Assembly: GCA_028691955.1 (NCBI GenBank)
Contig: JAQUYH010000007.1
Location: 745-64,744, forward strand
Direction: 5' to 3'
DNA: 64,000 nt
Source of the DNA: Bacilli bacterium
GTDB taxonomy: Bacteria > Bacillota_I > Bacilli_A > RF39 > UBA660
Positions within the stretch are counted from its first letter, which is position 1. Every line of letters starts with the position of its first letter. Made by a program: the position numbers and the translations under genes. The notes under the pieces are model-generated. The model had not been told where the DNA came from. It made no database searches and saw only the letters and a list, made by a program, of their open reading frames with translations. This document shows positions 4,349-24,063 of the stretch, one piece after another.

Positions 4349-4894
4349 ATGAAACTATATGTAGTAAGACACGGTGAGACAAACGAAAATATTCATAAAA
4401 TAATGCAAGGAAATATGGAAACCGATTTAAATAAAGTTGGCGAAGAACAAGCAATATCTTTAAGAAATAAAGTAAAAGAAGCCAACATTAATTTTATTAT
4501 TTCTTCACCCAAAAGAAGGGCTATAGAAACAGCTAAACTAGCAGCTCCTGATATATCAATAATGACAGATAATAGATTATTAAGTCGTGATCATGGTGAA
4601 TTTCAAGGAATGGCAAGAACAGAAATTAATCTAGAAGAATATTGGAACATTAAAAAGAACATTCAATATGAAAGAGCTGAAACAGTTGGCGAGATATTTA
4701 ATAGAGTATCATCATTTTTAAATGATGTTTCAGTTAACTATAGTGATAAACACGTTATGATTGTAACTCATAGCGGAATATGTAGAGTCTTATACTATTA
4801 TTTTAATGGATTTCCGCATAATGGAGATTTGACAGAATACGAGTCAACTAATTGCTCATTTGAGGAGTATGATTTAGACAAAATAGGGGGATAA
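4349..4894 (+). CDS. Histidine phosphatase family protein (phosphoglycerate mutase-like)
   Basis: N-terminal RHGETNEN motif (the RHG catalytic His). Confidence 0.75.
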   Translation: MKLYVVRHGETNENIHKIMQGNMETDLNKVGEEQAISLRNKVKEANINFIISSPKRRAIETAKLAAPDISIMTDNRLLSRDHGEFQGMARTEINLEEYWNIKKNIQYERAETVGEIFNRVSSFLNDVSVNYSDKHVMIVTHSGICRVLYYYFNGFPHNGDLTEYESTNCSFEEYDLDKIGG

Positions 4895-8033: not shown

Positions 8034-8110
8034 GGGCGATTAGCTCAGTTGGTTAGAGCACCTGCCTTACAAGCAGGGGGTCGTAGGTTCGAGTCCTACA
8101 TCGCCCACCA
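8034..8110 (+). tRNA. tRNA-Val (anticodon TAC)
   Basis: Cloverleaf with GGGCGAT/ATCGCCC acceptor stem, loop CTTACAA, encoded CCA. Confidence 0.9.
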
Positions 8111-8119
8111 TTTATTTTT

Positions 8120-8195
<76 letters not shown>

Positions 8196-8202
8196 TTTTT
8201 AT

Positions 8203-8286
8203 GGAGGGATAGCGAAGTGGCCAAACGCGGCAGACTGTAAATCTGTTCCTTCGGGTTCGATGGTTCAAATCCATCTCCCTCCACCA
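8203..8286 (+). tRNA. tRNA-Tyr (anticodon GTA)
   Basis: Acceptor GGAGGGA/TCCCTCC, anticodon loop with GTA, long variable arm, encoded CCA. Confidence 0.85.
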
Positions 8287-8306
8287 TCTAAGTGTTGTGG
8301 AATAAT

Positions 8307-8381
8307 TGCCTCGTAGCCAAGCGGTAAGGCACCACACTTTGACTGTGGCATGCGCTAGTTCGAATCTAGCCGAGGCAGCCA
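8307..8381 (+). tRNA. tRNA-Gln (anticodon TTG)
   Basis: Acceptor TGCCTCG/CGAGGCA, loop CTTTGAC, encoded CCA. Confidence 0.85.
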
Positions 8382-8393
8382 TCTTATTTATAT

Positions 8394-8469
8394 GTTCCGT
8401 TAGCTCAGTCGGTAGAGCATTTGACTTTTAATCAAAGGGTCTGGAGTTCGAATCTCCAACGGGACACCA
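8394..8469 (+). tRNA. tRNA-Lys (anticodon TTT)
   Basis: Loop CTTTTAA, TΨC arm GGAGTTCGAATCTCC, encoded CCA. Confidence 0.9.
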
Positions 8470-8473
8470 TCGT

Positions 8474-8562
8474 GCCTGAGTGGCGGAATCGGTAGACGCA
8501 CAGGACTTAAAATCCTGCGAGGGTTAAACCTCATACCAGTTCAAGTCTGGTCCCAGGCACCA
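8474..8562 (+). tRNA. tRNA-Leu (anticodon TAA)
   Basis: Loop CTTAAAA, long variable arm, encoded CCA. One A-C mismatch in the acceptor stem. Confidence 0.8.
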
Positions 8563-8623
8563 TCTTTGTTAATTAATATACATAAGTATATTTTTTATAA
8601 TTTTAGCTATTAAATAGCTATGT

Positions 8624-8714
8624 GGAGAAATACCCAAGTCTGGTTGAAGGGACCGGTCTTGAAAACCGGGAGGTCGGCAACGGCGCGGGGGTTCGAATCC
8701 CTCTTTCTCCGCCA
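8624..8714 (+). tRNA. tRNA-Ser (anticodon TGA)
   Basis: Acceptor GGAGAAA/TTTCTCC, loop CTTGAAA, long variable arm, encoded CCA. Confidence 0.85.
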
Positions 8715-8732
8715 TTTAAGTTTTTTTGATAT

Positions 8733-8809
<77 letters not shown>

Positions 8810-8810
8810 T

Positions 8811-8886
8811 GGTCCCGTAGTGTAGCGGTTATCACGTCTGCCTGTCACGCAGAAGATCACCAGTTCGAACCTGGCCGGGACCGCCA
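8811..8886 (+). tRNA. tRNA-Asp (anticodon GTC)
   Basis: Acceptor GGTCCCG/CGGGACC, loop CTGTCAC, encoded CCA. Confidence 0.9.
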
Positions 8887-8894
8887 TTTTAATT

Positions 8895-8970
8895 GGCTCT
8901 GTAGCTCAGTCGGTAGAGCAAAGGACTGAAAATCCTTGTGTCGGTGGTTCGATTCCACTCGGAGCCACCA
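8895..8970 (+). tRNA. tRNA-Phe (anticodon GAA)
   Basis: Loop CTGAAAA, encoded CCA. Confidence 0.9.
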
Positions 8971-8991
8971 TTTAAATTATTAATCCAATTT

Positions 8992-9068
8992 GCGCCCTTA
9001 GCTCAATTGGATAGAGCGTTAGACTACGGATCTAAAGGCTAGGGGTTCGACTCCCTTAGGGCGCACCA
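8992..9068 (+). tRNA. tRNA-Arg (anticodon ACG)
   Basis: Acceptor GCGCCCT/AGGGCGC, loop CTACGGA, encoded CCA. Confidence 0.9.
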
Positions 9069-9089
9069 TTTTGATTATAAAAATTAATT

Positions 9090-9166
9090 CGGAAAATAGC
9101 ACAACTTGGTAGTGCACTTGGTTTGGGACCAAGGGGTTGCAGGTTCAAATCCTGTTTTTCCGACCA
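9090..9166 (+). tRNA. tRNA-Pro (anticodon TGG)
   Basis: Acceptor CGGAAAA/TTTTCCG, loop TTTGGGA, encoded CCA. Last tRNA of the array. Confidence 0.85.
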
Positions 9167-9177
9167 TTCGTTATAGA

Positions 9178-9203
9178 AATCCTTATTTATTAAGGATTTT
9201 TTT
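9178..9203 (+). terminator. Rho-independent terminator of the tRNA operon
   Basis: AAATCCTTA-TTTAT-TAAGGATTT followed by T6. Confidence 0.8.
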
Positions 9204-9319
9204 ATGCTTTCATTTTTTATTTTCTTATAATTATCTTAATAGTTTGAAGAATGAGGCTATTATCAAGTAATGAGCCTGCTACCGATTTAATCGGTGGGGC
9301 AGACTCAGCCTCTATAATT

Positions 9320-9348
9320 TGATACATTTGACACTCCTTTCTATGATA
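9320..9348 (+). promoter_or_regulatory. Promoter with extended -10 (TGATATAAT), preceded by palindrome ACCGATT-T-AATCGGT (9281-9295)
   Basis: TTGACA ... TGATATAAT about 25 nt upstream of the ATG at 9370. A perfect 7-bp inverted repeat lies about 30 nt further upstream. Confidence 0.4.
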
Positions 9349-9369
9349 TAATTTAATTGTGGTGATAGT

Positions 9370-9690
9370 ATGGTTGAATATTTATTTAATTCAAGTGGTG
9401 AATGGATTGCCTTTAAAAAAGGTGACTATCTATATAATAAAGATTGTGAGTGGATTGGATGGTTTCCTTGGGGTGATAATGATGCAGTCAATAATAGTGG
9501 AGAGTATCTTGGAACAATTTGTAAGGAGAATAGATTATATAGAAATCAATTTTCACCTTATAGAGGCTATCCCGGTTATCCTGGTTATCCTGGCTATCCT
9601 GGTTATCCTGGTTATCCTGGATTTGCAGGTCATTCATCATTACCATGGAATATGTATGATATTCCAAAAACATTTTTGAGGAGGCAGTAG
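9370..9690 (+). CDS. Small Trp-rich protein with C-terminal (GYP)n tandem repeat; unknown function
   Basis: A GGTGA RBS precedes the ATG. The protein contains EWIGWFPWGDND and GYPGYPGYPGYPGYPGYPGF. Its stop lies 1 nt before the next gene's ATG. The alternative overlapping frame (9359-9679) looks non-protein-like. Confidence 0.5.
   Translation: MVEYLFNSSGEWIAFKKGDYLYNKDCEWIGWFPWGDNDAVNNSGEYLGTICKENRLYRNQFSPYRGYPGYPGYPGYPGYPGYPGFAGHSSLPWNMYDIPKTFLRRQ
9566..9620 (+). repeat. About six tandem copies of the 9-bp unit GG(T/C)TATCC(T/C), in frame, encoding (GYP)n
   Basis: Direct reading: ggctatccc ggttatcct ggttatcct ggctatcct ggttatcct ggttatcct. Confidence 0.85.
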
Positions 9691-9691
9691 T

Positions 9692-10360
9692 ATGAGTCAA
9701 GATGAGTTAACTAAACACTCTAGGGCAATTTTAGATAGTGCAAAAGATACAATAAATTCTTTTTTTGAAATATACGATAATTCTAAGAAAAAGATTACTG
9801 AGCAAAATCAGGATCTATTGCGTGCGATAATACTTTTTTCTGGTTCAACAATAGATGCTATTATAAAAAAATTAATAAATGATACAATCCAGGAGGTAAT
9901 TGATAGAGATGATGGAGCAAATAGTGAATTTAAGGATTTTGTTAGTAAAACTATACAAGACAGTAAAAACATTATAAATTCAAAGTTATTATCTGAGTTG
10001 TTTGTTTGCAATAGTCCTAAAGAACAATTAATTATTGAATTGAAAAAAAATTTAACCCATAATAGCTTACAAAGTGCAGATGAAATTGCTAAAACTATTG
10101 GATATTTTGGAATTCCAACTAAAGAGTTGCCAATAAAAATTGATGAATTGAAAAGTTTGTTTATTGTTAGAAATAAAATTATGCATGAAATGGATGTGAA
10201 ATTGGACTCATCAACTTTTATAAGAAATGACAGGTCAAAAGTTGAGGCTAAAAAAATTTCAAATGAGCTTTTAAACTTATCAGAATGTTTGATAGATCTT
10301 GTTGAAAAGAAATTAAAACAACCACTCATTGAAGAAAGAGTTACATACCTGGTGATATAA
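9692..10360 (+). CDS. HEPN-like protein (R-x4-H motif RNKIMHE); candidate RNase toxin / Abi component
   Basis: A GGAGG RBS. 222 aa, predicted helical. The C-terminal region carries RNKIMH, matching the HEPN Rx4-6H signature. No other family was recognised by eye. Confidence 0.45.
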   Translation: MSQDELTKHSRAILDSAKDTINSFFEIYDNSKKKITEQNQDLLRAIILFSGSTIDAIIKKLINDTIQEVIDRDDGANSEFKDFVSKTIQDSKNIINSKLLSELFVCNSPKEQLIIELKKNLTHNSLQSADEIAKTIGYFGIPTKELPIKIDELKSLFIVRNKIMHEMDVKLDSSTFIRNDRSKVEAKKISNELLNLSECLIDLVEKKLKQPLIEERVTYLVI

Positions 10361-10420
10361 TTAAAACTATTTAATTAAATAATAGAAAGTTTATTTTAAA
10401 TATAGTTAAAGGAGAATTTT

Positions 10421-11332
10421 ATGAATGTTAATGATATTTTAGGCTTAGGGAAAATGACTGATAAGCTTTTAAATACAATTGGAAAAGGATTGGGATGGTA
10501 TTTAGAACCCAAGCAAATTATTAGAAAGGCAAAAGCCACAAAAAAGGCTTATGAACTATTACATGATGTTAAACAAAATCATAATTTTTTGGTTTCTGTA
10601 AAATCTGAAGATATTGCAGTTGAAGAAATTCTACCAGATATAAATCAAGGCCTAATTGAAAAAGAAATTATTCAAAATTATCAAGCTCTTGAAATAGTTG
10701 AAAAAGCATTAAGTATGATAGATATAAAACAACCTGTTTCAGATAAAGAAATAGATGAACAGTGGATTGATAGATACTTTGATAGTATCAAAAAAATCAC
10801 AAATGAAGAAGTAAAAGTAATTTGGGCAAAAATTTTGGCAGATACAGTCACTGAAAAAAAAGAATATTCAATTAGGACTCTTGATTTTCTTAGAAGCCTG
10901 TCTAATGCAGAAGCCTTGGTTTTCACTAAGTTAGAAGGTCTAGCATTTAAGCAAGGAAGAGAGCTTCTACTACCAAATTTTGAAGAATTTAACAATAAGT
11001 ATAGTATAAGAAAGCAAGATTTATGGCTTTTAGAGGAATTAGGTATATTAAAGGAGGGATTAATCTTGACGATTCCACAAGAAAAAGGAATTTATATATA
11101 TGAAAACAGTGTAGTCATTGTTTCTCCAAAAAATGGAAAAGACGAAAAATTAAATATATACAAGTTTACCAATATGGGTATCGAACTATACAACTTGCTT
11201 GGTGGTAACAGAAAAGTTAATATTAATGAATATTGCACCTTTGTTTTTAAAAGGAAAGGCGATGTTAAAGTAGGAAAAATAACAAGTATTTCTTATGATA
11301 TGGCTCATCATGAACCATTAATAGAAATTTGA
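10421..11332 (+). CDS. Hypothetical 303-aa protein, third gene of the island operon
   Basis: An AAGGAG RBS. Soluble, with no motif I recognise. Co-oriented with the HEPN-like gene. Confidence 0.5.
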   Translation: MNVNDILGLGKMTDKLLNTIGKGLGWYLEPKQIIRKAKATKKAYELLHDVKQNHNFLVSVKSEDIAVEEILPDINQGLIEKEIIQNYQALEIVEKALSMIDIKQPVSDKEIDEQWIDRYFDSIKKITNEEVKVIWAKILADTVTEKKEYSIRTLDFLRSLSNAEALVFTKLEGLAFKQGRELLLPNFEEFNNKYSIRKQDLWLLEELGILKEGLILTIPQEKGIYIYENSVVIVSPKNGKDEKLNIYKFTNMGIELYNLLGGNRKVNINEYCTFVFKRKGDVKVGKITSISYDMAHHEPLIEI

Positions 11333-11454
11333 TATAAGAATATTCTCTTAATATTCTCTTAAAATAAGAAATAAATAAGCAAAAAAGACTCTCTATGAAA
11401 ATAGAAAGCCTTTTAAAATAAAGATTAGAAAATTCTGGAATAAACAAATCTAGT

Positions 11455-11482
11455 CCTGTTTTCTCGACCATTGTTATAAAAT
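11455..11482 (+). repeat. Degenerate copy of the tRNA-Pro 3' end (candidate attR)
   Basis: About 25 of 28 positions match 9151-9180. Confidence 0.45.
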
Positions 11483-11572
11483 TCAACCTTGATATAAATG
11501 TATAAAACTATGAATTTTTTTATAGTTTTATTTTTCATACAAAATAATATATAATATATTTAGGTGATGAAG

Positions 11573-12136
11573 ATGAAAGTTGTAATAGCAACAAAAAATC
11601 CAGGGAAAATTGAAGGCGCTAAAAAAGCACTTGAACATTATTATGATGATATAAACATTATAGGCATCCCTACACCATCTGATGTAAGTGATCAACCAGT
11701 TAATGATGAAATAATGCAAGGAGCAAAAAATAGAGTATCGAATTTAAAAAAATATTGTTTAGAAAATGGAATAGAGGCAGATCAATTTTTAGCTATAGAG
11801 TCTGGTATGACAAACAGTCTAGGCGAATGGATAATTATAAATGTTGCAGTTATTGAAGATAATGACGGATTTATCAGTTGGGGAACAAGCCATGGCTTTC
11901 CAGTACCTAATAAATATGTTGAAGATATCAAAGAAAAAGAATTAGGACCAGTTATGGACAAAGTATTTAATGAGAATGACTTACGTTCTGGTAAAGGCGG
12001 AATTTCTTTATTAACTGATGGTATTATATCTAGATTGGATATGACAGAATCAGCCTTTGTAATGGCTTTGATTCAGCATAGAAAACACAACATTTGGAGT
12101 GACAAACACTATCACACTAATAATAAAAATAATTGA
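11573..12136 (+). CDS. yjjX: Inosine/xanthosine triphosphatase (YjjX family non-canonical purine NTPase)
   Basis: MKVVIATKNPGKI...AIESG... follows the YjjX pattern. Confidence 0.65.
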   Translation: MKVVIATKNPGKIEGAKKALEHYYDDINIIGIPTPSDVSDQPVNDEIMQGAKNRVSNLKKYCLENGIEADQFLAIESGMTNSLGEWIIINVAVIEDNDGFISWGTSHGFPVPNKYVEDIKEKELGPVMDKVFNENDLRSGKGGISLLTDGIISRLDMTESAFVMALIQHRKHNIWSDKHYHTNNKNN

Positions 12137-12214
12137 AGACAAAGAGCATTACTAATATCAATAAAATAAAAATTCACTTTTTAAAAATAATTGATAATAA
12201 ATTAAGGTGATAAA

Positions 12215-12706
12215 ATGAAAAAAGAAATTGGTACATATAAGGATTGTTCAAATTGCAAAAATAAAAATAATAACTGCTGCACAGATTTCGTCAATATTGA
12301 TAATCCTTTAATAACAGAAAAGGAATTAGAAATAATTAAATTAAGAAGCAATAACAAAGAATTTTATAAAAAGATAACACCTCATTTATACAATATAAAA
12401 ACATGCGAAAATGGTGTATGTCCCTTTTATAAGAAAGGATGCTCAATTTATTTGTATCGCCCAGTTGATTGTAGACTATATCCTTTTGATATAATTAGAA
12501 AAAAAGATAAATATTACCTCATTTTATATAAATATCCATGCAATAATGTTGAAGTGACCAAAAAATTTATTGATGATAATATTAATGATGTCGAATTATT
12601 GGCAAATAATTTAGCAGAATTTATCGAAGAATATACTTGTCATATATGTAACCAAAAGTTGCAAAAAAAAGAATACATAGTAATAAAAGAATTAATAACA
12701 AAATAG
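12215..12706 (+). CDS. YkgJ-family zinc/iron-chelating domain protein (CxxCxxCC)
   Basis: CSNCKNKNNNCC and CPFYKKGCSIYLYRPVDCRLYPF motifs. Confidence 0.6.
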   Translation: MKKEIGTYKDCSNCKNKNNNCCTDFVNIDNPLITEKELEIIKLRSNNKEFYKKITPHLYNIKTCENGVCPFYKKGCSIYLYRPVDCRLYPFDIIRKKDKYYLILYKYPCNNVEVTKKFIDDNINDVELLANNLAEFIEEYTCHICNQKLQKKEYIVIKELITK

Positions 12707-13018
12707 TAAAAATATTATTTGGTATATAATCAGAGATAGCGGTTTAATAATAATAGAAGAATTCTATGCTAAAGCTATTTGTCCATTAGATGGTAGACAT
12801 AAAAAAAATAAAAATAGTCATTCAAGAACTAGATTTTTTATCAGAAACAGATAAGAACACTCTTCTAGGAATGACACTATCTAGTTATATTGTTATGTTG
12901 AAATATTAGCTGATGAAAACTATAATAATAAATAAATTTATATGAAATATATTTAGATAAAATTTTTAATAGAGTATTTAATTGACAAAAAAAGCTATTA
13001 GATGTATATTGTTCCTGA

Positions 13019-13054
13019 AGAGTAGTATAATCGATTATACTACTCTTATTTTTT
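13019..13054 (+). terminator. Perfect 13-bp inverted repeat with 2-nt loop plus T-tract in the 5' leader of the 13124 gene (attenuator or operator candidate)
   Basis: AGAGTAGTATAAT-cg-ATTATACTACTCT then TATTTTTT. TTGACA at 12984 lies upstream. Confidence 0.5.
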
Positions 13055-13123
13055 GGGAAGAAAGGATATAAAAAAATAAGACTTGAAATAAACTACAGAA
13101 ATTTTTATTAGCGGGTTATAAAA

Positions 13124-13666
13124 ATGGGAAAGAAATTTTATCAAAAAAAGCCATTCATAATAGGAGCAGTAATATTTACTTTAATGATAATAGGATCAAT
13201 TAATGGTAATAATGAAGCTACTATAGAAAAAGAAGCAACATCAAAAGCAGAAAAACAAGAAGTAGAAATAGATAAGTCACAAGAAGAAACAGAAGAAAAT
13301 GTAATAGTAGATCTTGAAGAAGAAGTTAAAGAGGTAATACCAACCTGTGATGGAACAAATATTACAGAAAATTGTGAATTAGATGGTGAAACGTATTCAA
13401 GCTATAAATATTATCCTGCAGTAACAGAAGTATATCATTATGAAACTCAAACAACCTATACAACAGAAATAGTTGGGTACTGTACTTTATGTAATGACGG
13501 CACAAGAAGCCCTTCTTGTTCAACGGGTAGAGGAACATGCTCTCATCACGGTGGAGTTGCAGAATGGAACGCACCAATATATAAACAGGTTGCACATACC
13601 GAGCAAGTAAAAATAATAGACACGCCTGCTAAAGAAGAGCGATATGAAATAACTTTACAAGAATAA
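13124..13666 (+). CDS. Membrane-anchored secreted protein with a DUF3761-like Cys motif
   Basis: An N-terminal TM helix and an acidic linker. The C-terminus has CTLCNDGTRSPSCSTGRGTCSHHGGVAEW. Confidence 0.5.
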   Translation: MGKKFYQKKPFIIGAVIFTLMIIGSINGNNEATIEKEATSKAEKQEVEIDKSQEETEENVIVDLEEEVKEVIPTCDGTNITENCELDGETYSSYKYYPAVTEVYHYETQTTYTTEIVGYCTLCNDGTRSPSCSTGRGTCSHHGGVAEWNAPIYKQVAHTEQVKIIDTPAKEERYEITLQE

Positions 13667-13714
13667 TACCAACTTTAATAAATTTTAAACGTTTAAATAG
13701 ACTATGCATATAAT

Positions 13715-13756
13715 CATAGTTTTTTTGATTAAAATAATATATAATAAATATAGGTG
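13715..13756 (+). repeat. Terminator+promoter+RBS cassette, copy 1 (41/42 identical to 15176-15217)
   Basis: CATAGTTTTTTTGATTAAAATAATATATAATAAATATAGGTG. Confidence 0.8.
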
Positions 13757-13761
13757 GCCAA

Positions 13762-14712
13762 ATGAAAATAATTACTGAACAATACTGTTTGAAAAGTGAA
13801 AAAGTAAAAAAAAATATAATAATAGCTCTTATAGCAGATTTACATTATATTGGAACTACCGAATACAGCACTAATATAGATATAATGAAAGCTGTTTTAA
13901 ACATGAAACCAAATTATATATGCATATGTGGTGATTTCTTTGGAGGATTTGGAACAAACAATTTTGAAAATAAAAAGGTTATGAATATACTCCTTGATTT
14001 ATTAGAAAAGTTAAAAAAAATTGCTCCAGTAATTTTATCATTAGGTAACCATGACTTAACTATAAGAAAAGATAAAGAATTAAGAAAGCTATTTAAACAA
14101 TTGAAGTCAGAAAACATTTATCCTCTTGATAACGAAAGCGTTGAATTTGAGGATTGTCTTTTCAGTGGATTTTACGCAAGTCGAAAATCTTATGCCATAT
14201 CAAAAATTTCCAAAAGGAAAAGCAAAATGATAGTTAAAGATTGGAACAAAAGCGACTTTAAACCATCAAAAAATAAATACAATATTTTATGTCATCATTT
14301 ACCAGATACATTGTATAATAAAACAATAAAAGATAATATTTCTAATTTATTTGATTATGATATTGTATTATCTGGGCATACACATAACGGCTCTTTATCA
14401 GAAAAATATATAGAAAAAAGAAATCAAAAAATTGACAATAAAATATTGAAAGCTAAAAGTGACAAAATAAGAGTGCAACTAGAAAAGAAGAAATACTATG
14501 GCTTTTGTGAATCAATTATCAATTTTCCACCCTTCTTAAGAAAAGTATCTAGAGGAATGCACTATGTTAATGGTACAAATCTAATAATATCAAAAGGAAT
14601 AACTAGCGGAATAAAATTTATAATAAAAGATAAAATAGTATTTGATATATCAAAAAATTTTCCATCATATATAACACAAATAAAGATAGAGCCAGTTGTT
14701 AAAATGGATTAA
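13762..14712 (+). CDS. Calcineurin-like metallophosphoesterase
   Basis: GDFFGG, GNHD and GHTHNG motifs. Confidence 0.7.
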   Translation: MKIITEQYCLKSEKVKKNIIIALIADLHYIGTTEYSTNIDIMKAVLNMKPNYICICGDFFGGFGTNNFENKKVMNILLDLLEKLKKIAPVILSLGNHDLTIRKDKELRKLFKQLKSENIYPLDNESVEFEDCLFSGFYASRKSYAISKISKRKSKMIVKDWNKSDFKPSKNKYNILCHHLPDTLYNKTIKDNISNLFDYDIVLSGHTHNGSLSEKYIEKRNQKIDNKILKAKSDKIRVQLEKKKYYGFCESIINFPPFLRKVSRGMHYVNGTNLIISKGITSGIKFIIKDKIVFDISKNFPSYITQIKIEPVVKMD

Positions 14713-14803
14713 AATAAATATAATGGCCTAATTTTTATATGGAAGTAAATATGCTATTGAAGGAGTTTCAATAGACTTTGAAAAAGTTATTTCAAATATT
14801 GAT

Positions 14804-15058
14804 TTGAAAAAGTATAATATTATTGGCTTAACATATAATGATATAACCTCCAATGATTTATATCAAAATATTAAAAAACAGGATACAGAAGATGATTGGA
14901 CATATTACTATAGCAACGAAGAATTAAAAAGAAATATGGACTATTTTATAGAGAGCAATAAATATTTTAATAGTAAATTCATTGAATATAAAATCGCTGC
15001 TTATGACGTATCATTTAATAGAGAAAAAATATTAAACGATATAGTAAATAGTTTATAA
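14804..15058 (+). CDS. Hypothetical 84-aa protein
   Basis: An ORF with no recognisable motif. Confidence 0.3.
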   Translation: MKKYNIIGLTYNDITSNDLYQNIKKQDTEDDWTYYYSNEELKRNMDYFIESNKYFNSKFIEYKIAAYDVSFNREKILNDIVNSL

Positions 15059-15175
15059 ATTAATGGAGGTCAAAATGAATTGAAAACAAAAATCAGATGA
15101 ATTTTTAAAAAGCTTCGAGCACTCATTTGACATAAACTTCGAATTTAAAGAAAGAATATAAACTGTGAAATTATT

Positions 15176-15217
15176 CATAGTTTTTTTAATTAAAATAATA
15201 TATAATAAATATAGGTG
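15176..15217 (+). repeat. Terminator+promoter+RBS cassette, copy 2
   Basis: CATAGTTTTTTTAATTAAAATAATATATAATAAATATAGGTG. A related core (AAAATAATATATAAT..TTTAGGTGA) also sits upstream of yjjX at 11541-11566. Confidence 0.8.
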
Positions 15218-15224
15218 ATTAAAC

Positions 15225-15845
15225 ATGAACAACTTTAAATTTAAAATAATAGACTTTAGCAATATAAAAGAAGCAATAAAAACACAGAATGAAATATTTC
15301 CAAATGAAGATGGAACTATAAACTTATTAGCAAGTCTAGATAGAAACCTATTTATGAATGTTACTGGTATATTTTATATAGACGACAATGTTAAATATTA
15401 TTTGGCATATTTAGAAGATAAAATAGTAGGAATTACTGGAATATATTCATACAAAGATAAATGGCCTAATGATGCATGGATTGGCTGGTATGGAATAAAA
15501 GAAGAACATAGAGGACAAGGATATGGGAAAACAATACTAGAATGGACCATAACAAAAGCTAAAGAAGAGGGCTATAAAACAATTAGATTATATACTGATA
15601 TTGATGATAATAAAAAGGCTGTAAAGCTATATGAAAAAGCAGGTTTTACTGGAGAAAAATACACAAAAGAAAAATTAGACTATAATTGTTACATATATTC
15701 CAAATCTTTAAGTGAAGACAAAGTAGAACTTTGGGATAATAAGCTTTTAGGGTTAAGCTATCAATCAGAATTAGATCACTATAATAAAGATGACATTTCT
15801 GCTATTTTAAATAAATACTTAGAAATTTTAAACGATAAAAAATGA
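15225..15845 (+). CDS. GNAT family N-acetyltransferase
   Basis: GNAT motif A region (HRGQGYGKTILEW). Confidence 0.65.
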   Translation: MNNFKFKIIDFSNIKEAIKTQNEIFPNEDGTINLLASLDRNLFMNVTGIFYIDDNVKYYLAYLEDKIVGITGIYSYKDKWPNDAWIGWYGIKEEHRGQGYGKTILEWTITKAKEEGYKTIRLYTDIDDNKKAVKLYEKAGFTGEKYTKEKLDYNCYIYSKSLSEDKVELWDNKLLGLSYQSELDHYNKDDISAILNKYLEILNDKK

Positions 15846-15857
15846 AAAGGTGAAAAG

Positions 15858-16658
15858 ATGGAAAAAATAGCAATAATATCAGATATACATGGTAATTTAG
15901 AAGCATTAAACGCAATATTTGAAGATATAGATAAAAAGAAAATAACCAAAATCTTTTGTTTAGGAGATATTGTAGGAAAAGGATCTCATTCCAAAGAATG
16001 TATTGACTTAGTATTAAAAAAATGTGAAGTAGTATTAAAAGGGAATTTAGAAGAGCTAATAGTAGCACACGAAAATTTAGATAATAAATATAGAATATTT
16101 TATAGGAAACAATTACAAGAAGAATATATTTCTAAAATTACAGGTTTAAGCTTTTGTTATGAGTTATATATTAGTGGCAGCTTAGTAAGATTCTTTCATG
16201 CCGCACCAACCAGCGTATATGATAGAGTACACTTTTTTGAAGACCACAAAAGAAAAATAACGCTTTTTTATCCTAGTGATAAAACTATAAGTGATAAGAT
16301 GGCAGATATTGTAGTTTTTGGTGATCTACACACCCAGCTGATGGAGAAGTTTTACAATAAAACGTTAATTAATTGCGGAAGTGTTGGAAATTCAACAAGT
16401 ATAATTAGAGATGATAATATTGATAGTGATTTTATGGAAGTAACCCAAGCTTTCTATTTGACAATAGAAGGAGAAATAAGTAGTAAAGAATATAACAGTA
16501 GCCTATCATTTGATTTTATTAGAGTTCCATATAATATAACCAAAGAACTAGAAAATAGTAATTTAGCCATGGACAAAGCAGAATACGAATATGAAATAAA
16601 AAATGGAACTTATAGAAATGTTGATAAATTAAAAGAAAAATATGAAATTTTAAGCTGA
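15858..16658 (+). CDS. Metallophosphoesterase (YfcE/ApaH-like)
   Basis: ISDIHGN, GDIVGKG and GDLH motifs. Confidence 0.7.
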   Translation: MEKIAIISDIHGNLEALNAIFEDIDKKKITKIFCLGDIVGKGSHSKECIDLVLKKCEVVLKGNLEELIVAHENLDNKYRIFYRKQLQEEYISKITGLSFCYELYISGSLVRFFHAAPTSVYDRVHFFEDHKRKITLFYPSDKTISDKMADIVVFGDLHTQLMEKFYNKTLINCGSVGNSTSIIRDDNIDSDFMEVTQAFYLTIEGEISSKEYNSSLSFDFIRVPYNITKELENSNLAMDKAEYEYEIKNGTYRNVDKLKEKYEILS

Positions 16659-16709
16659 TCAAAAATAATCAAAAACGTGCTCTAAAAAAGTATTAAAGTA
16701 GATAGATTT

Positions 16710-16735
16710 AAACTGTAAATTTTACAGTTTTTTTG
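16710..16735 (+). terminator. Rho-independent terminator
   Basis: AAACTGTAAA-tt-TTACAGTTT followed by T6. Confidence 0.75.
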
Positions 16736-16799
16736 ATTGTGGAAAAAAGCTGCAATAAATGATATACTTAATATATATAACAAGAAATAAGGAGAAATT

Positions 16800-17315
16800 A
16801 TGAACAAAGCATTAAGCTATATTTTACAATTAAGGAATGCCTTGCGCCCAGAGCTTAGAAATATGCCATTGTTTCAAAATGGAAGTGCGATCATAGTAGT
16901 CAATGAGAAAGGGGATATATTGCTACAACACAGAACTGATAGAGATTTATGGTGTGTTCCAGGCGGTCTTCAAGAACTAGGAGAAACATTTGAAGAAGTT
17001 GCTATCAGAGAACTTAAAGAAGAAACTGGATTAATAGTAAACGAGGAAGACTTAATATTAATAAAAGCAGTTTCAGGAGAGAGTAGAAAAAACTCTTACC
17101 CTAATGGGGACGTTGTATATAATAATACACTTTTATATATGGCAAGAAAATATACAGGCGTTTTAGGAAGTAACTACGAAGAAATAGTTGATAGAGGAAA
17201 TGGATATTTTGAGTCCTCAAAAGAATCAAGAGGATTAAAGTTTTTCTCTTTAGACACTTTACCAGATAATTTAATGGATCAAGATTTAATTAAAGTTTAT
17301 ATTAAAAGAAAATAA
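16800..17315 (+). CDS. NUDIX hydrolase
   Basis: Nudix box GGLQELGETFEEVAIRELKEETGL. Confidence 0.8.
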   Translation: MNKALSYILQLRNALRPELRNMPLFQNGSAIIVVNEKGDILLQHRTDRDLWCVPGGLQELGETFEEVAIRELKEETGLIVNEEDLILIKAVSGESRKNSYPNGDVVYNNTLLYMARKYTGVLGSNYEEIVDRGNGYFESSKESRGLKFFSLDTLPDNLMDQDLIKVYIKRK

Positions 17316-17382
17316 AATATTCATTTATACTATTGACTCTATAGTTAACTATAGTGTTAGTATTAACTTGTGAGGTGAAATA

Positions 17383-23913: not shown

Positions 23914-24063
23914 TTTAAAGTATGCTATTATAAACTTGTTTTGGAAATAGTACCGTAGACAGTAGGGAGATAAAACTTTAATTATCCTACCGAGGACTTA
24001 ATTATTTAAGAATCTCGGCCTAACTACGCGTTAGGCTTTTCTATGCAATAAAGGAGGTGGATT
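23914..24063 (+). promoter_or_regulatory. rplJ (L10) leader RNA; autoregulatory structure candidate
   Basis: Structured leader with hairpins CCGAGGACTTAATTATTTAAGAATCTCGG and GCCTAACTACGCGTTAGGC, at the position of the Firmicutes L10 leader. Confidence 0.5.

Follow-up and report, generated by a model that had tools for sequence, protein, structure and literature searches.

Organization of the tRNA-Pro locus

We analyzed a stretch of 64,000 nucleotides (nt) from a metagenome-assembled genome (MAG) of an uncultured gut Bacilli bacterium with a G+C content (GC) of about 27% (GCA_028691955.1, contig JAQUYH010000007.1, positions 745–64,744), hereafter called the window. In this window, a tRNA-Pro(UGG) gene is followed by a short segment with three genes, and the segment ends in a partial and slightly altered copy of the tRNA 3′ end. 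The segment is probably a decayed remnant of an element that once integrated into the tRNA gene. tRNA-Pro(UGG), the presumed integration target, is the last of 12 tRNAs that are arrayed at 8034–9166; it occupies 9090–9166 on the forward strand and was identified by ARAGORN, by the Rfam tRNA model, and by its cloverleaf fold. The T-loop lies at 9144–9150, the 3′ strand of the T-stem at 9151–9155, the 3′ strand of the acceptor stem at 9156–9162, and the ACCA end at 9163–9166.

All features from here to the second terminator are on the forward strand. The first copy of the direct repeat, which resembles an attL, spans 9150–9180 and is made of the final 17 nt of tRNA-Pro and 14 nt of its 3′ flank. 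An intrinsic terminator, the hairpin AAATCCTTA-TTTAT-TAAGGATTT with a T-run after it, lies at 9176–9203 (fold z-score −5.1). The inserted segment starts with a leader of 163 nt (9207–9369), which is without match in relatives and contains a sigma-70-like promoter, TTGATA-17-TATGAT, at 9319–9347. Three open reading frames (ORFs) follow. ORF1 (9370–9690) encodes a beta-flower-like protein of 106 amino acids (aa) with six GYP repeats and is the first gene of a conserved pair, while ORF2 (9692–10360), which starts 1 nt past the ORF1 stop, encodes a 222-aa HEPN protein of the RiboL-PSP type, a predicted RNase. ORF3 (10421–11332) has its own ribosome-binding site and encodes a DUF2806 protein (Pfam PF10987) of 303 aa. 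A 14-bp hairpin at 11383–11414, the probable terminator of these genes, lies about 40 nt upstream of the second, attR-like copy of the repeat (11454–11482), which comprises the 3′ strands of the T-stem and acceptor stem, ACCA, and 12 nt of flank. Further right, folding revealed a second terminator, a 13-bp A/U hairpin with a T-run (11502–11531), just 5′ of the promoter of an NTPase gene (inosine/xanthosine triphosphatase; 11573–12136; Pfam NTPase_I-T, E = 4e-41) that forms the right flank.

A partial copy of the tRNA-Pro 3′ end

Copy 1 of the repeat reads TCCTGTTTTTCCGACCATTCGTTATAGAAAT and copy 2 reads TCCTGTTTTCTCGACCATTGTTATAAAAT, or TCCTGTTTTCTCGACCATT-GTTATA-AAAT in gapped form. The 31 columns of their alignment hold 27 identities, 2 substitutions, and 2 one-base gaps, and two blocks of 9 and 8 nt, TCCTGTTTT and CGACCATT, respectively, are identical in both copies. 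On the cloverleaf, the repeat starts at the last base of the T-loop and runs through ACCA and 14 nt of flank; ungapped similarity reaches back to 9145 and 11449, within the T-loop (repeat family D8). The original prediction had placed the two copies at 9151–9180 and 11455–11482 with about 25 of 28 positions matching. The sequence is as described there and the count was fair, being 26 of 28 when made in the same way, while the start has to be moved one base to the left.

The recurrence of the tRNA-Pro 3′ end downstream of the gene, as the prediction held, is real, statistically significant, and unique in the 64 kb. A 19-mer of the repeat with at most 2 mismatches occurs exactly twice in the window, as compared to 0.00 times expected from 100 shuffles, and the local alignment score of the repeat is 42, as compared to a maximum of 31 among 1933 windows drawn at random from the same sequence. 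Even at up to 4 mismatches, the 64 kb contain no other convincing copy, so the concern that the repeat might be a common intergenic motif, which the prediction had named as part of its own possible refutation, is not borne out within the 64 kb. Since the other 11 tRNAs have no 3′-end copies at up to 3 mismatches, copying of tRNA fragments is not a common motif here either. A possible continuation of the similarity across the T-rich terminators (D11, 9191–9220 against 11509–11538) adds only about 4 score units, is not significant alone, and was discarded.

Copy 2 is not a tRNA gene. ARAGORN called no tRNA there, and the 5′ part of a tRNA is not found upstream. Read from the sequence, its acceptor strand TTTCTCG would face the tRNA 5′ strand CGGAAAA with a G-U pair and an A-C mismatch, and it is one change away from the form TTTCCCG that is found in tRNA-Pro of relatives.

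Phages integrate at tRNA-Pro in this lineage

A scan of viral contigs revealed a full tRNA-Pro at the edge of prophage contigs. In several of them (L007, L008/L013, and L009), a tyrosine integrase gene comes directly after tRNA-Pro and its terminator, and genes of phage repressor type come next. The integrases match Pfam Phage_integrase and fall into three families with 27–34% mutual identity. The tRNA order in L008 is the same as in the window, and L007 and L013, which come from one metagenome, are identical through the terminator and then continue with different arm-type tandem repeats. These results indicate that tRNA-Pro(UGG) is in fact used for integration in the lineage.

Scanning viral contigs for the terminator motif gave the phage counterparts, that is, attP sites (L236, L239/L251, L240, L242, L247, and L252). 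Their order is a P-arm with a terminator about 45 nt upstream, a tRNA 3′ fragment of about 18–20 nt, a spacer of about 8 nt, the terminator hairpin, arm repeats, and the integrase gene. The L239/L251 site is on a contig with repeated ends, which we read as a circular genome. Judged by sequence, both copies in the window fit this layout: copy 1, with tRNA end, spacer, and the CCTTAT...TAAGG terminator, is consistent with the expected attL, and copy 2, with a fragment of the same extent and a hairpin about 40 nt upstream, is consistent with the expected attR.

The attP sites (also L245–L246) were set against the attL junctions of L007, L008, L013, L241, and L243. Different tRNA 3′ fragments (ttcccttattctccacca; others with the ends ctgctcca and ctccgcca) precede one common terminator, TTARCCCTTATTTTATAAGGGTTTT, which is followed by similar arm repeats and the integrase gene. 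Because different fragments precede the same module of terminator and arm repeats, our results suggest that phage attP is modular and that a swap of about 20 nt retargets integration, which gives a clue to how integration specificity gets exchanged.

The DNA after tRNA-Pro varies among relatives

A 25-mer of the tRNA-Pro 3′ end, used to scan genomes, gave 20 loci (L015–L034). By title, 16 belong to uncultured Bacilli or allied low-GC Bacillota (including CAG:884 and CAG:878), 3 to Muribaculaceae, and 1 to a Clostridium sp., and one MAG (L029) has a tRNA-Pro identical to that of the window. Five of them (L016, L023, L024, L032, and L034) share with the window both the S1-domain gene upstream and the tRNA array, in synteny. 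In blastn comparisons with L016, L024, L025, L029, and L034, the similarity spans the array as well as the terminator and ends at 9195–9206. The left edge proposed originally, an insertion following the tRNA-Pro 3′ end, is right in kind; however, relatives remain similar across the terminator, up to about 9206, so that the variable DNA begins there and not at 9181.

Downstream of tRNA-Pro, the locus is variable among family-level relatives, and we found no genes common to the window and the syntenic relatives. In three loci (L020, L021, and L032), tRNA-Pro is directly followed by an MvaI/BcnI-family restriction endonuclease gene in the opposite orientation, an IS110 transposase gene occupies the same spot in L028, where the near-identical relative L022 is uninterrupted, and unrelated genes are found in other relatives. 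Five loci have two tRNA-Pro genes 0.2–0.7 kb apart (L019, L022, L023, L028, and L033).

One of the nearest homologs of the flanking NTPase gene is in L004, and the region is identical in L005. Here, a tRNA-Pro-like sequence of 66 nt (4555–4620) comes right after tRNA-Arg(CCG), 1.4 kb upstream of the NTPase gene (68% identity), with two GNAT genes between. It has kept an intact acceptor stem and T-arm, and its last 25 nt are identical to those of the tRNA-Pro in the window; it is without a D-arm, has an AU-rich “anticodon” arm, and is not called by ARAGORN. This sequence may represent a tRNA pseudogene, a relic of an att site, or an unusual tRNA-like element. Its position near the NTPase gene hints that the linkage of tRNA-Pro and NTPase is ancestral, with variable insertions between the two.

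In a separate case, the array itself is interrupted. A 2-kb segment in L008 (304–2289) splits it between tRNA-Met and tRNA-Asp, which are 1 nt apart in the window, and carries two genes for a 340-aa lipoprotein-like protein and a 266-aa membrane protein.

A two-gene module and an independent DUF2806 gene

Three ORFs on the same strand, none of which encodes a recombinase, are all that the segment between the copies holds, as the original prediction had noted. Its description of these genes as a three-gene operon is better replaced by a two-gene module and an independent third gene. Among the 80 metagenome loci with relatives of ORF1 (L155–L234), a RiboL-PSP HEPN gene is located immediately downstream in 35, and a DUF2806 gene in none. 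Because no other ORF1 locus carries DUF2806, we regard the ORF1–ORF2 module as separate from ORF3.

ORF1 scores 21.9 bits against the 4-fold beta-flower family (PF21784), under the cut-off of 25 bits. A relationship at the family level is likely, since 53 of the 54 members of the ORF1 family match PF21784 at E ≤ 0.01 (best 1.8e-8). The beta-flower fold has been described (PMC10584680). A single-sequence model of ORF1 was unusable (predicted local distance difference test (pLDDT) score of 46) and gave four N-terminal strands at low confidence; the beta-flower barrel has eight strands. The tract of six GYP repeats, (GYP)6, is near-invariant.

ORF2 matches the RiboL-PSP family (PF18735) with 40.5 bits, above the cut-off of 28.4 bits, and its AlphaFold2 model (pLDDT 89) has the helical fold of HEPN domains. 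The residues R160-N-x-I-x-H165-E-x-D168 are invariant in 16 homologs; R160-N-K-I-M-H165 in the window corresponds to the R-x4-6-H motif.

The pair is found in other settings as well. At the DNA level, ORF1–ORF2 shares 72.6% identity over 956 nt with a pair (L035/L036) that follows a large serine recombinase gene, and in another group (L037–L040) the pair comes directly after tRNA-Met, before a type I restriction–modification (R-M) system and an OLD-family nuclease. ORF1 is the better conserved of the two, with 75% identity in L035 and 62% in L037, as compared to 60% and 48% for ORF2. In nine long loci, R-M and abortive infection (Abi)-like genes are abundant around the pair, and the neighbors include ResIII, DNA methylases, HsdR/HsdS, AlwI, GmrSD, and AAA_21. 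Two candidate associations did not hold: the 282-aa gene that follows the L037 module was rejected as a DUF2806 relative, and adjacency to tRNA was rejected as a general property of the ORF1 module, as only 2 of 78 loci are near a tRNA. We found no member of the ORF1 family in viral contigs and no ORF2-type HEPN in phages, and PHROGs and NCBIfam added nothing further on the three genes.

Some features of the wider ORF1 family were observed in passing. The family is widespread, including high-GC Actinobacteria-like contigs, and appears to stand alone at some loci. Many “downstream partners” at high-GC loci look like spurious antisense ORFs and were discounted. Several homologs seem to carry long N-terminal fusions (230–406 aa; L168–L170, L173, L190, L203, and L210), some of which may be artefacts of ORF calling, and the downstream partner in L155, a 412-aa protein with an R-N-N-H-S-A-A-H motif, looks HEPN-like.

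ORF3 is a full-length member of DUF2806 (83.1 bits against a cut-off of 24.5 bits). This family has 3735 representatives at E ≤ 1e-3, of which the best is 36% identical to ORF3. One homolog (L006) belongs to an element at tRNA-Arg that also encodes ParE, Rep_trans, and an integrase. The search for DUF2806 in phages gave a single weak match, near the record end of a Sinorhizobium phage.

The three Pfam-level domains of the segment have counterparts in anti-phage systems. Belisama (DUF2806), Cernunnos (PF21784), and Esos (HEPN-like) are described in a preprint as single-gene anti-phage cassettes from Vibrio chromosomal integrons, of which Belisama is related to Abi-alpha, lyses cultures at high multiplicity of infection, and is toxic when overexpressed (bioRxiv 10.1101/2024.07.02.601686). 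Both here and there, the same three domains occur in small promoter-proximal genes on mobile platforms. However, Cernunnos and Esos are stand-alone cassettes of Pseudomonadota integrons, whereas ORF1 and ORF2 are a conserved coupled pair; the platform here is a tRNA-linked remnant in a gut Bacilli MAG, and the likeness is at the domain level. In comparison with HEPN–MNT toxin–antitoxin systems and with AbiJ/AbiV, the partner of ORF2 is a beta-flower-like (GYP)6 protein instead of an MNT nucleotidyltransferase or a known antitoxin, and ORF2, which belongs to the RiboL-PSP HEPN family PF18735, has no convincing match in PADLOC.

By analogy with these systems, it is plausible that the segment carries a coupled two-gene module and an independent gene, both of them candidates for abortive-infection-type defence. 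ORF1 might restrain or trigger the ORF2 RNase, as in a toxin–regulator or abortive-infection module. A broader reading, to which we give tentative and somewhat less than even credence, is that the pair constitutes an uncharacterised two-gene anti-phage or toxin–antitoxin system that is widespread across phyla, in which a (GYP)6 beta-flower protein controls a HEPN RNase and whose two genes move together, located in defence islands and at the termini of integrative elements. The pair neighbors R-M genes in many metagenomes and is missing from defence catalogues, PADLOC among them. It presents a candidate defence or toxin module that can be tested cheaply, and it is more interesting than the island itself.

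Origin of the segment

The account that we consider probable is that of a decayed, integrase-less remnant of an element integrated into tRNA-Pro, either a stump of a prophage or something like a cis-mobilizable element (CIME). An element with a tyrosine integrase, most likely a temperate phage or a small island, whose attP contained a tRNA-Pro 3′ fragment, would have entered tRNA-Pro(UGG) at its 3′ end. On the left, this event would have restored a complete tRNA with spacer and terminator (attL), and on the right, it would have produced a second, partial tRNA 3′ end (attR, 11454–11482). A later deletion may then have taken the integrase gene and the body of the element, while the promoter-bearing cassette stayed next to attR, and the two repeats would have diverged thereafter. 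What remains, at about 9207–11453, would be self-contained in its expression, having a promoter and a terminator of its own, and is probably fixed in place.

Tyrosine recombinases exchange strands over a crossover region of 6–8 bp. Williams is said to have distinguished, in Nucleic Acids Res in 2002, three classes of sublocation for integration in tRNA genes, namely the anticodon loop, the T-loop, and the 3′ end. Remnants linked to a tRNA and bounded by a partial tRNA repeat are textbook features, and the segment resembles prophage and island remnants integrated in tRNAs in its insertion at the tRNA 3′ end, in a repeat that runs from the junction of T-loop and T-stem past CCA, in its accessory genes, and in the use of the same tRNA by integrase-bearing prophages of relatives. 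It differs from them in lacking an integrase, element genes, and a compositional signature, in the degenerate repeat, and in its size of only 2.3 kb. A CIME is an element that keeps attL and attR and has lost its integration genes (PMC5704250). The segment is like a CIME in that att-like repeats stand at the end of a tRNA gene without a recombination or transfer module; however, streptococcal CIMEs derive from integrative and conjugative elements and have functional att sites, whereas the parent here is at least as likely to have been a phage and the repeats have diverged. The segment adds little to this picture except that tRNA-Pro(UGG) at the end of the array appears as a hotspot of integration and defence in a poorly known lineage of uncultured gut Bacilli.

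Several observations weigh against a remnant of this kind. The two copies of the repeat differ by 2 indels and by 2 substitutions, the latter in the acceptor strand. The prediction that an integrase is absent was confirmed by the ORF content and by tblastn, since the four tRNA-Pro integrases of the lineage detected neither an integrase nor a remnant of one in the whole window (E > 2). There are no recognizable phage structural or replication genes in the segment, and its GC of 0.25–0.33 is the same as outside and thus not atypical. No arm-type tandem repeats are visible in the sequence after the left terminator, and the non-coding ends of the island had no match in the phages and islands compared. 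PADLOC 2.0 gave only marginal matches to partial regions for the three proteins (E = 0.0018 and 0.00056), so the defence role is argued from analogy.

The leader at the left end has a further feature of its own. A perfect palindrome, ACCGAT-TTA-ATCGGT (9281–9295), is located upstream of the promoter-like site, in a relatively GC-rich stretch, GAGGCT...AGCCTC (9240–9312), and may be an operator or an RNA element or be left over from a site of recombinase binding; Rfam, searched at a permissive threshold over 9160–11580, gave no match.

A further point against a remnant is that no empty-site allele was found, with the species known from one sample only; such an allele would be expected to read ...GGTTCAAATCCTGTTTT[TC/CT]CGACCA joined straight to TTGTTATAAAATTCAACCTTG. 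The flanking NTPase and the proteins of the segment match NCBI MAG proteins encoded on a 65.7-kb contig at 100% identity. Exact-protein look-ups of the flanking NTPase (in forms of 190 and 187 aa) and of orf163 gave no record, and those of the DUF2806 and S1 genes returned only contigs of the same sample, SRR22315505, identical to the window. A Logan contig from SRR22315505 is likewise identical to 9139–17332. A protein scan with the NTPase gave no confirmed relative among species-representative genomes. The nearest NTPase homologs (72–68% identity; L002–L005) lie in non-syntenic regions that lack an upstream tRNA-Pro and thus cannot show an empty site, and no orf163 homolog lies beside the NTPase gene in L004. 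A 15-mer scan of viral contigs for pairs of attL and attR was set aside as uninformative, with chance matches among those listed. The integration into the tRNA-Pro 3′ end that was predicted originally is partly supported, its core being backed well by the integrases of relatives, the attP layout, the variable downstream DNA, and genes linked to mobile elements and defence.

An unlikely alternative is that no integration took place, that copy 2 is what is left of either a second tRNA-Pro gene or a local duplication, and that the genes came in by homologous or illegitimate recombination. The paired tRNA-Pro genes of several relatives, the decayed tRNA-Pro-like sequence upstream of the NTPase gene in L004, the ordinary GC, and the missing integrase remnants would all be in keeping with such a history. 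However, the similarity begins abruptly at the junction of T-loop and T-stem, nothing tRNA-like lies upstream of 11449, and the copy has the same extent as the tRNA fragments in the phage attP sites with this terminator and arm-repeat module. It also runs 12–14 nt past CCA, which is expected for an att block and not for paralogous tRNA genes with differing flanks. The abrupt boundary and the common flank after CCA therefore lead us to favor an att block over duplication. Chance similarity or a common intergenic motif is very improbable as the source of the repeat. In AT-rich DNA short two-copy repeats are indeed frequent (families D10–D20), but with 0 matches in 100 shuffles, a score well above the maximum of random windows, two copies only in 64 kb, and specificity for the last tRNA of the array, a chance origin is rejected statistically.

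The remaining possibility accepts integration and differs from a fixed remnant in what followed. The segment would still be mobilizable, like a CIME or a satellite, its att copies being recombined in trans (or in cis after accretion) by an incoming tRNA-Pro-specific integrase, so that the defence cassette hitch-hikes. With both att-like copies kept and the integration genes absent, the segment agrees with the definition of a CIME (PMC5704250); several integrases specific for tRNA-Pro are in circulation within the lineage, and the perfect blocks of 9 and 8 nt are each long enough for a crossover region. The 2 substitutions and 2 indels in the repeat make mobilization in trans less likely. Moreover, tblastn found no integrase in the 64 kb, and the cassette was not found elsewhere flanked by this repeat, the ORF1–ORF2 pair having other contexts that are rarely near a tRNA. 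We rate mobilization lower still than duplication, and a decayed remnant of an element integrated into tRNA-Pro is the reading that we prefer.

Other features of the window

Two 31-nt segments that are 84% similar (AAAATAAT..TATAAT..TTAGGTGAT.AA) precede the NTPase gene (11541–11571) and the next gene (12184–12214), and probably reflect a shared architecture of promoter and ribosome-binding site. Two ordinary leaders were found elsewhere, namely a T-box leader (43800–43983) preceding an ORF at 43968–45755 and an L10 leader (23935–24052) preceding rplJ. An ORF on the forward strand at 47029–47808, with coordinates taken from a profile of seven transmembrane segments, matches Pfam Heliorhodopsin (E = 1.5e-93), and a heliorhodopsin is mildly unexpected in a gut Bacilli MAG with a small genome.

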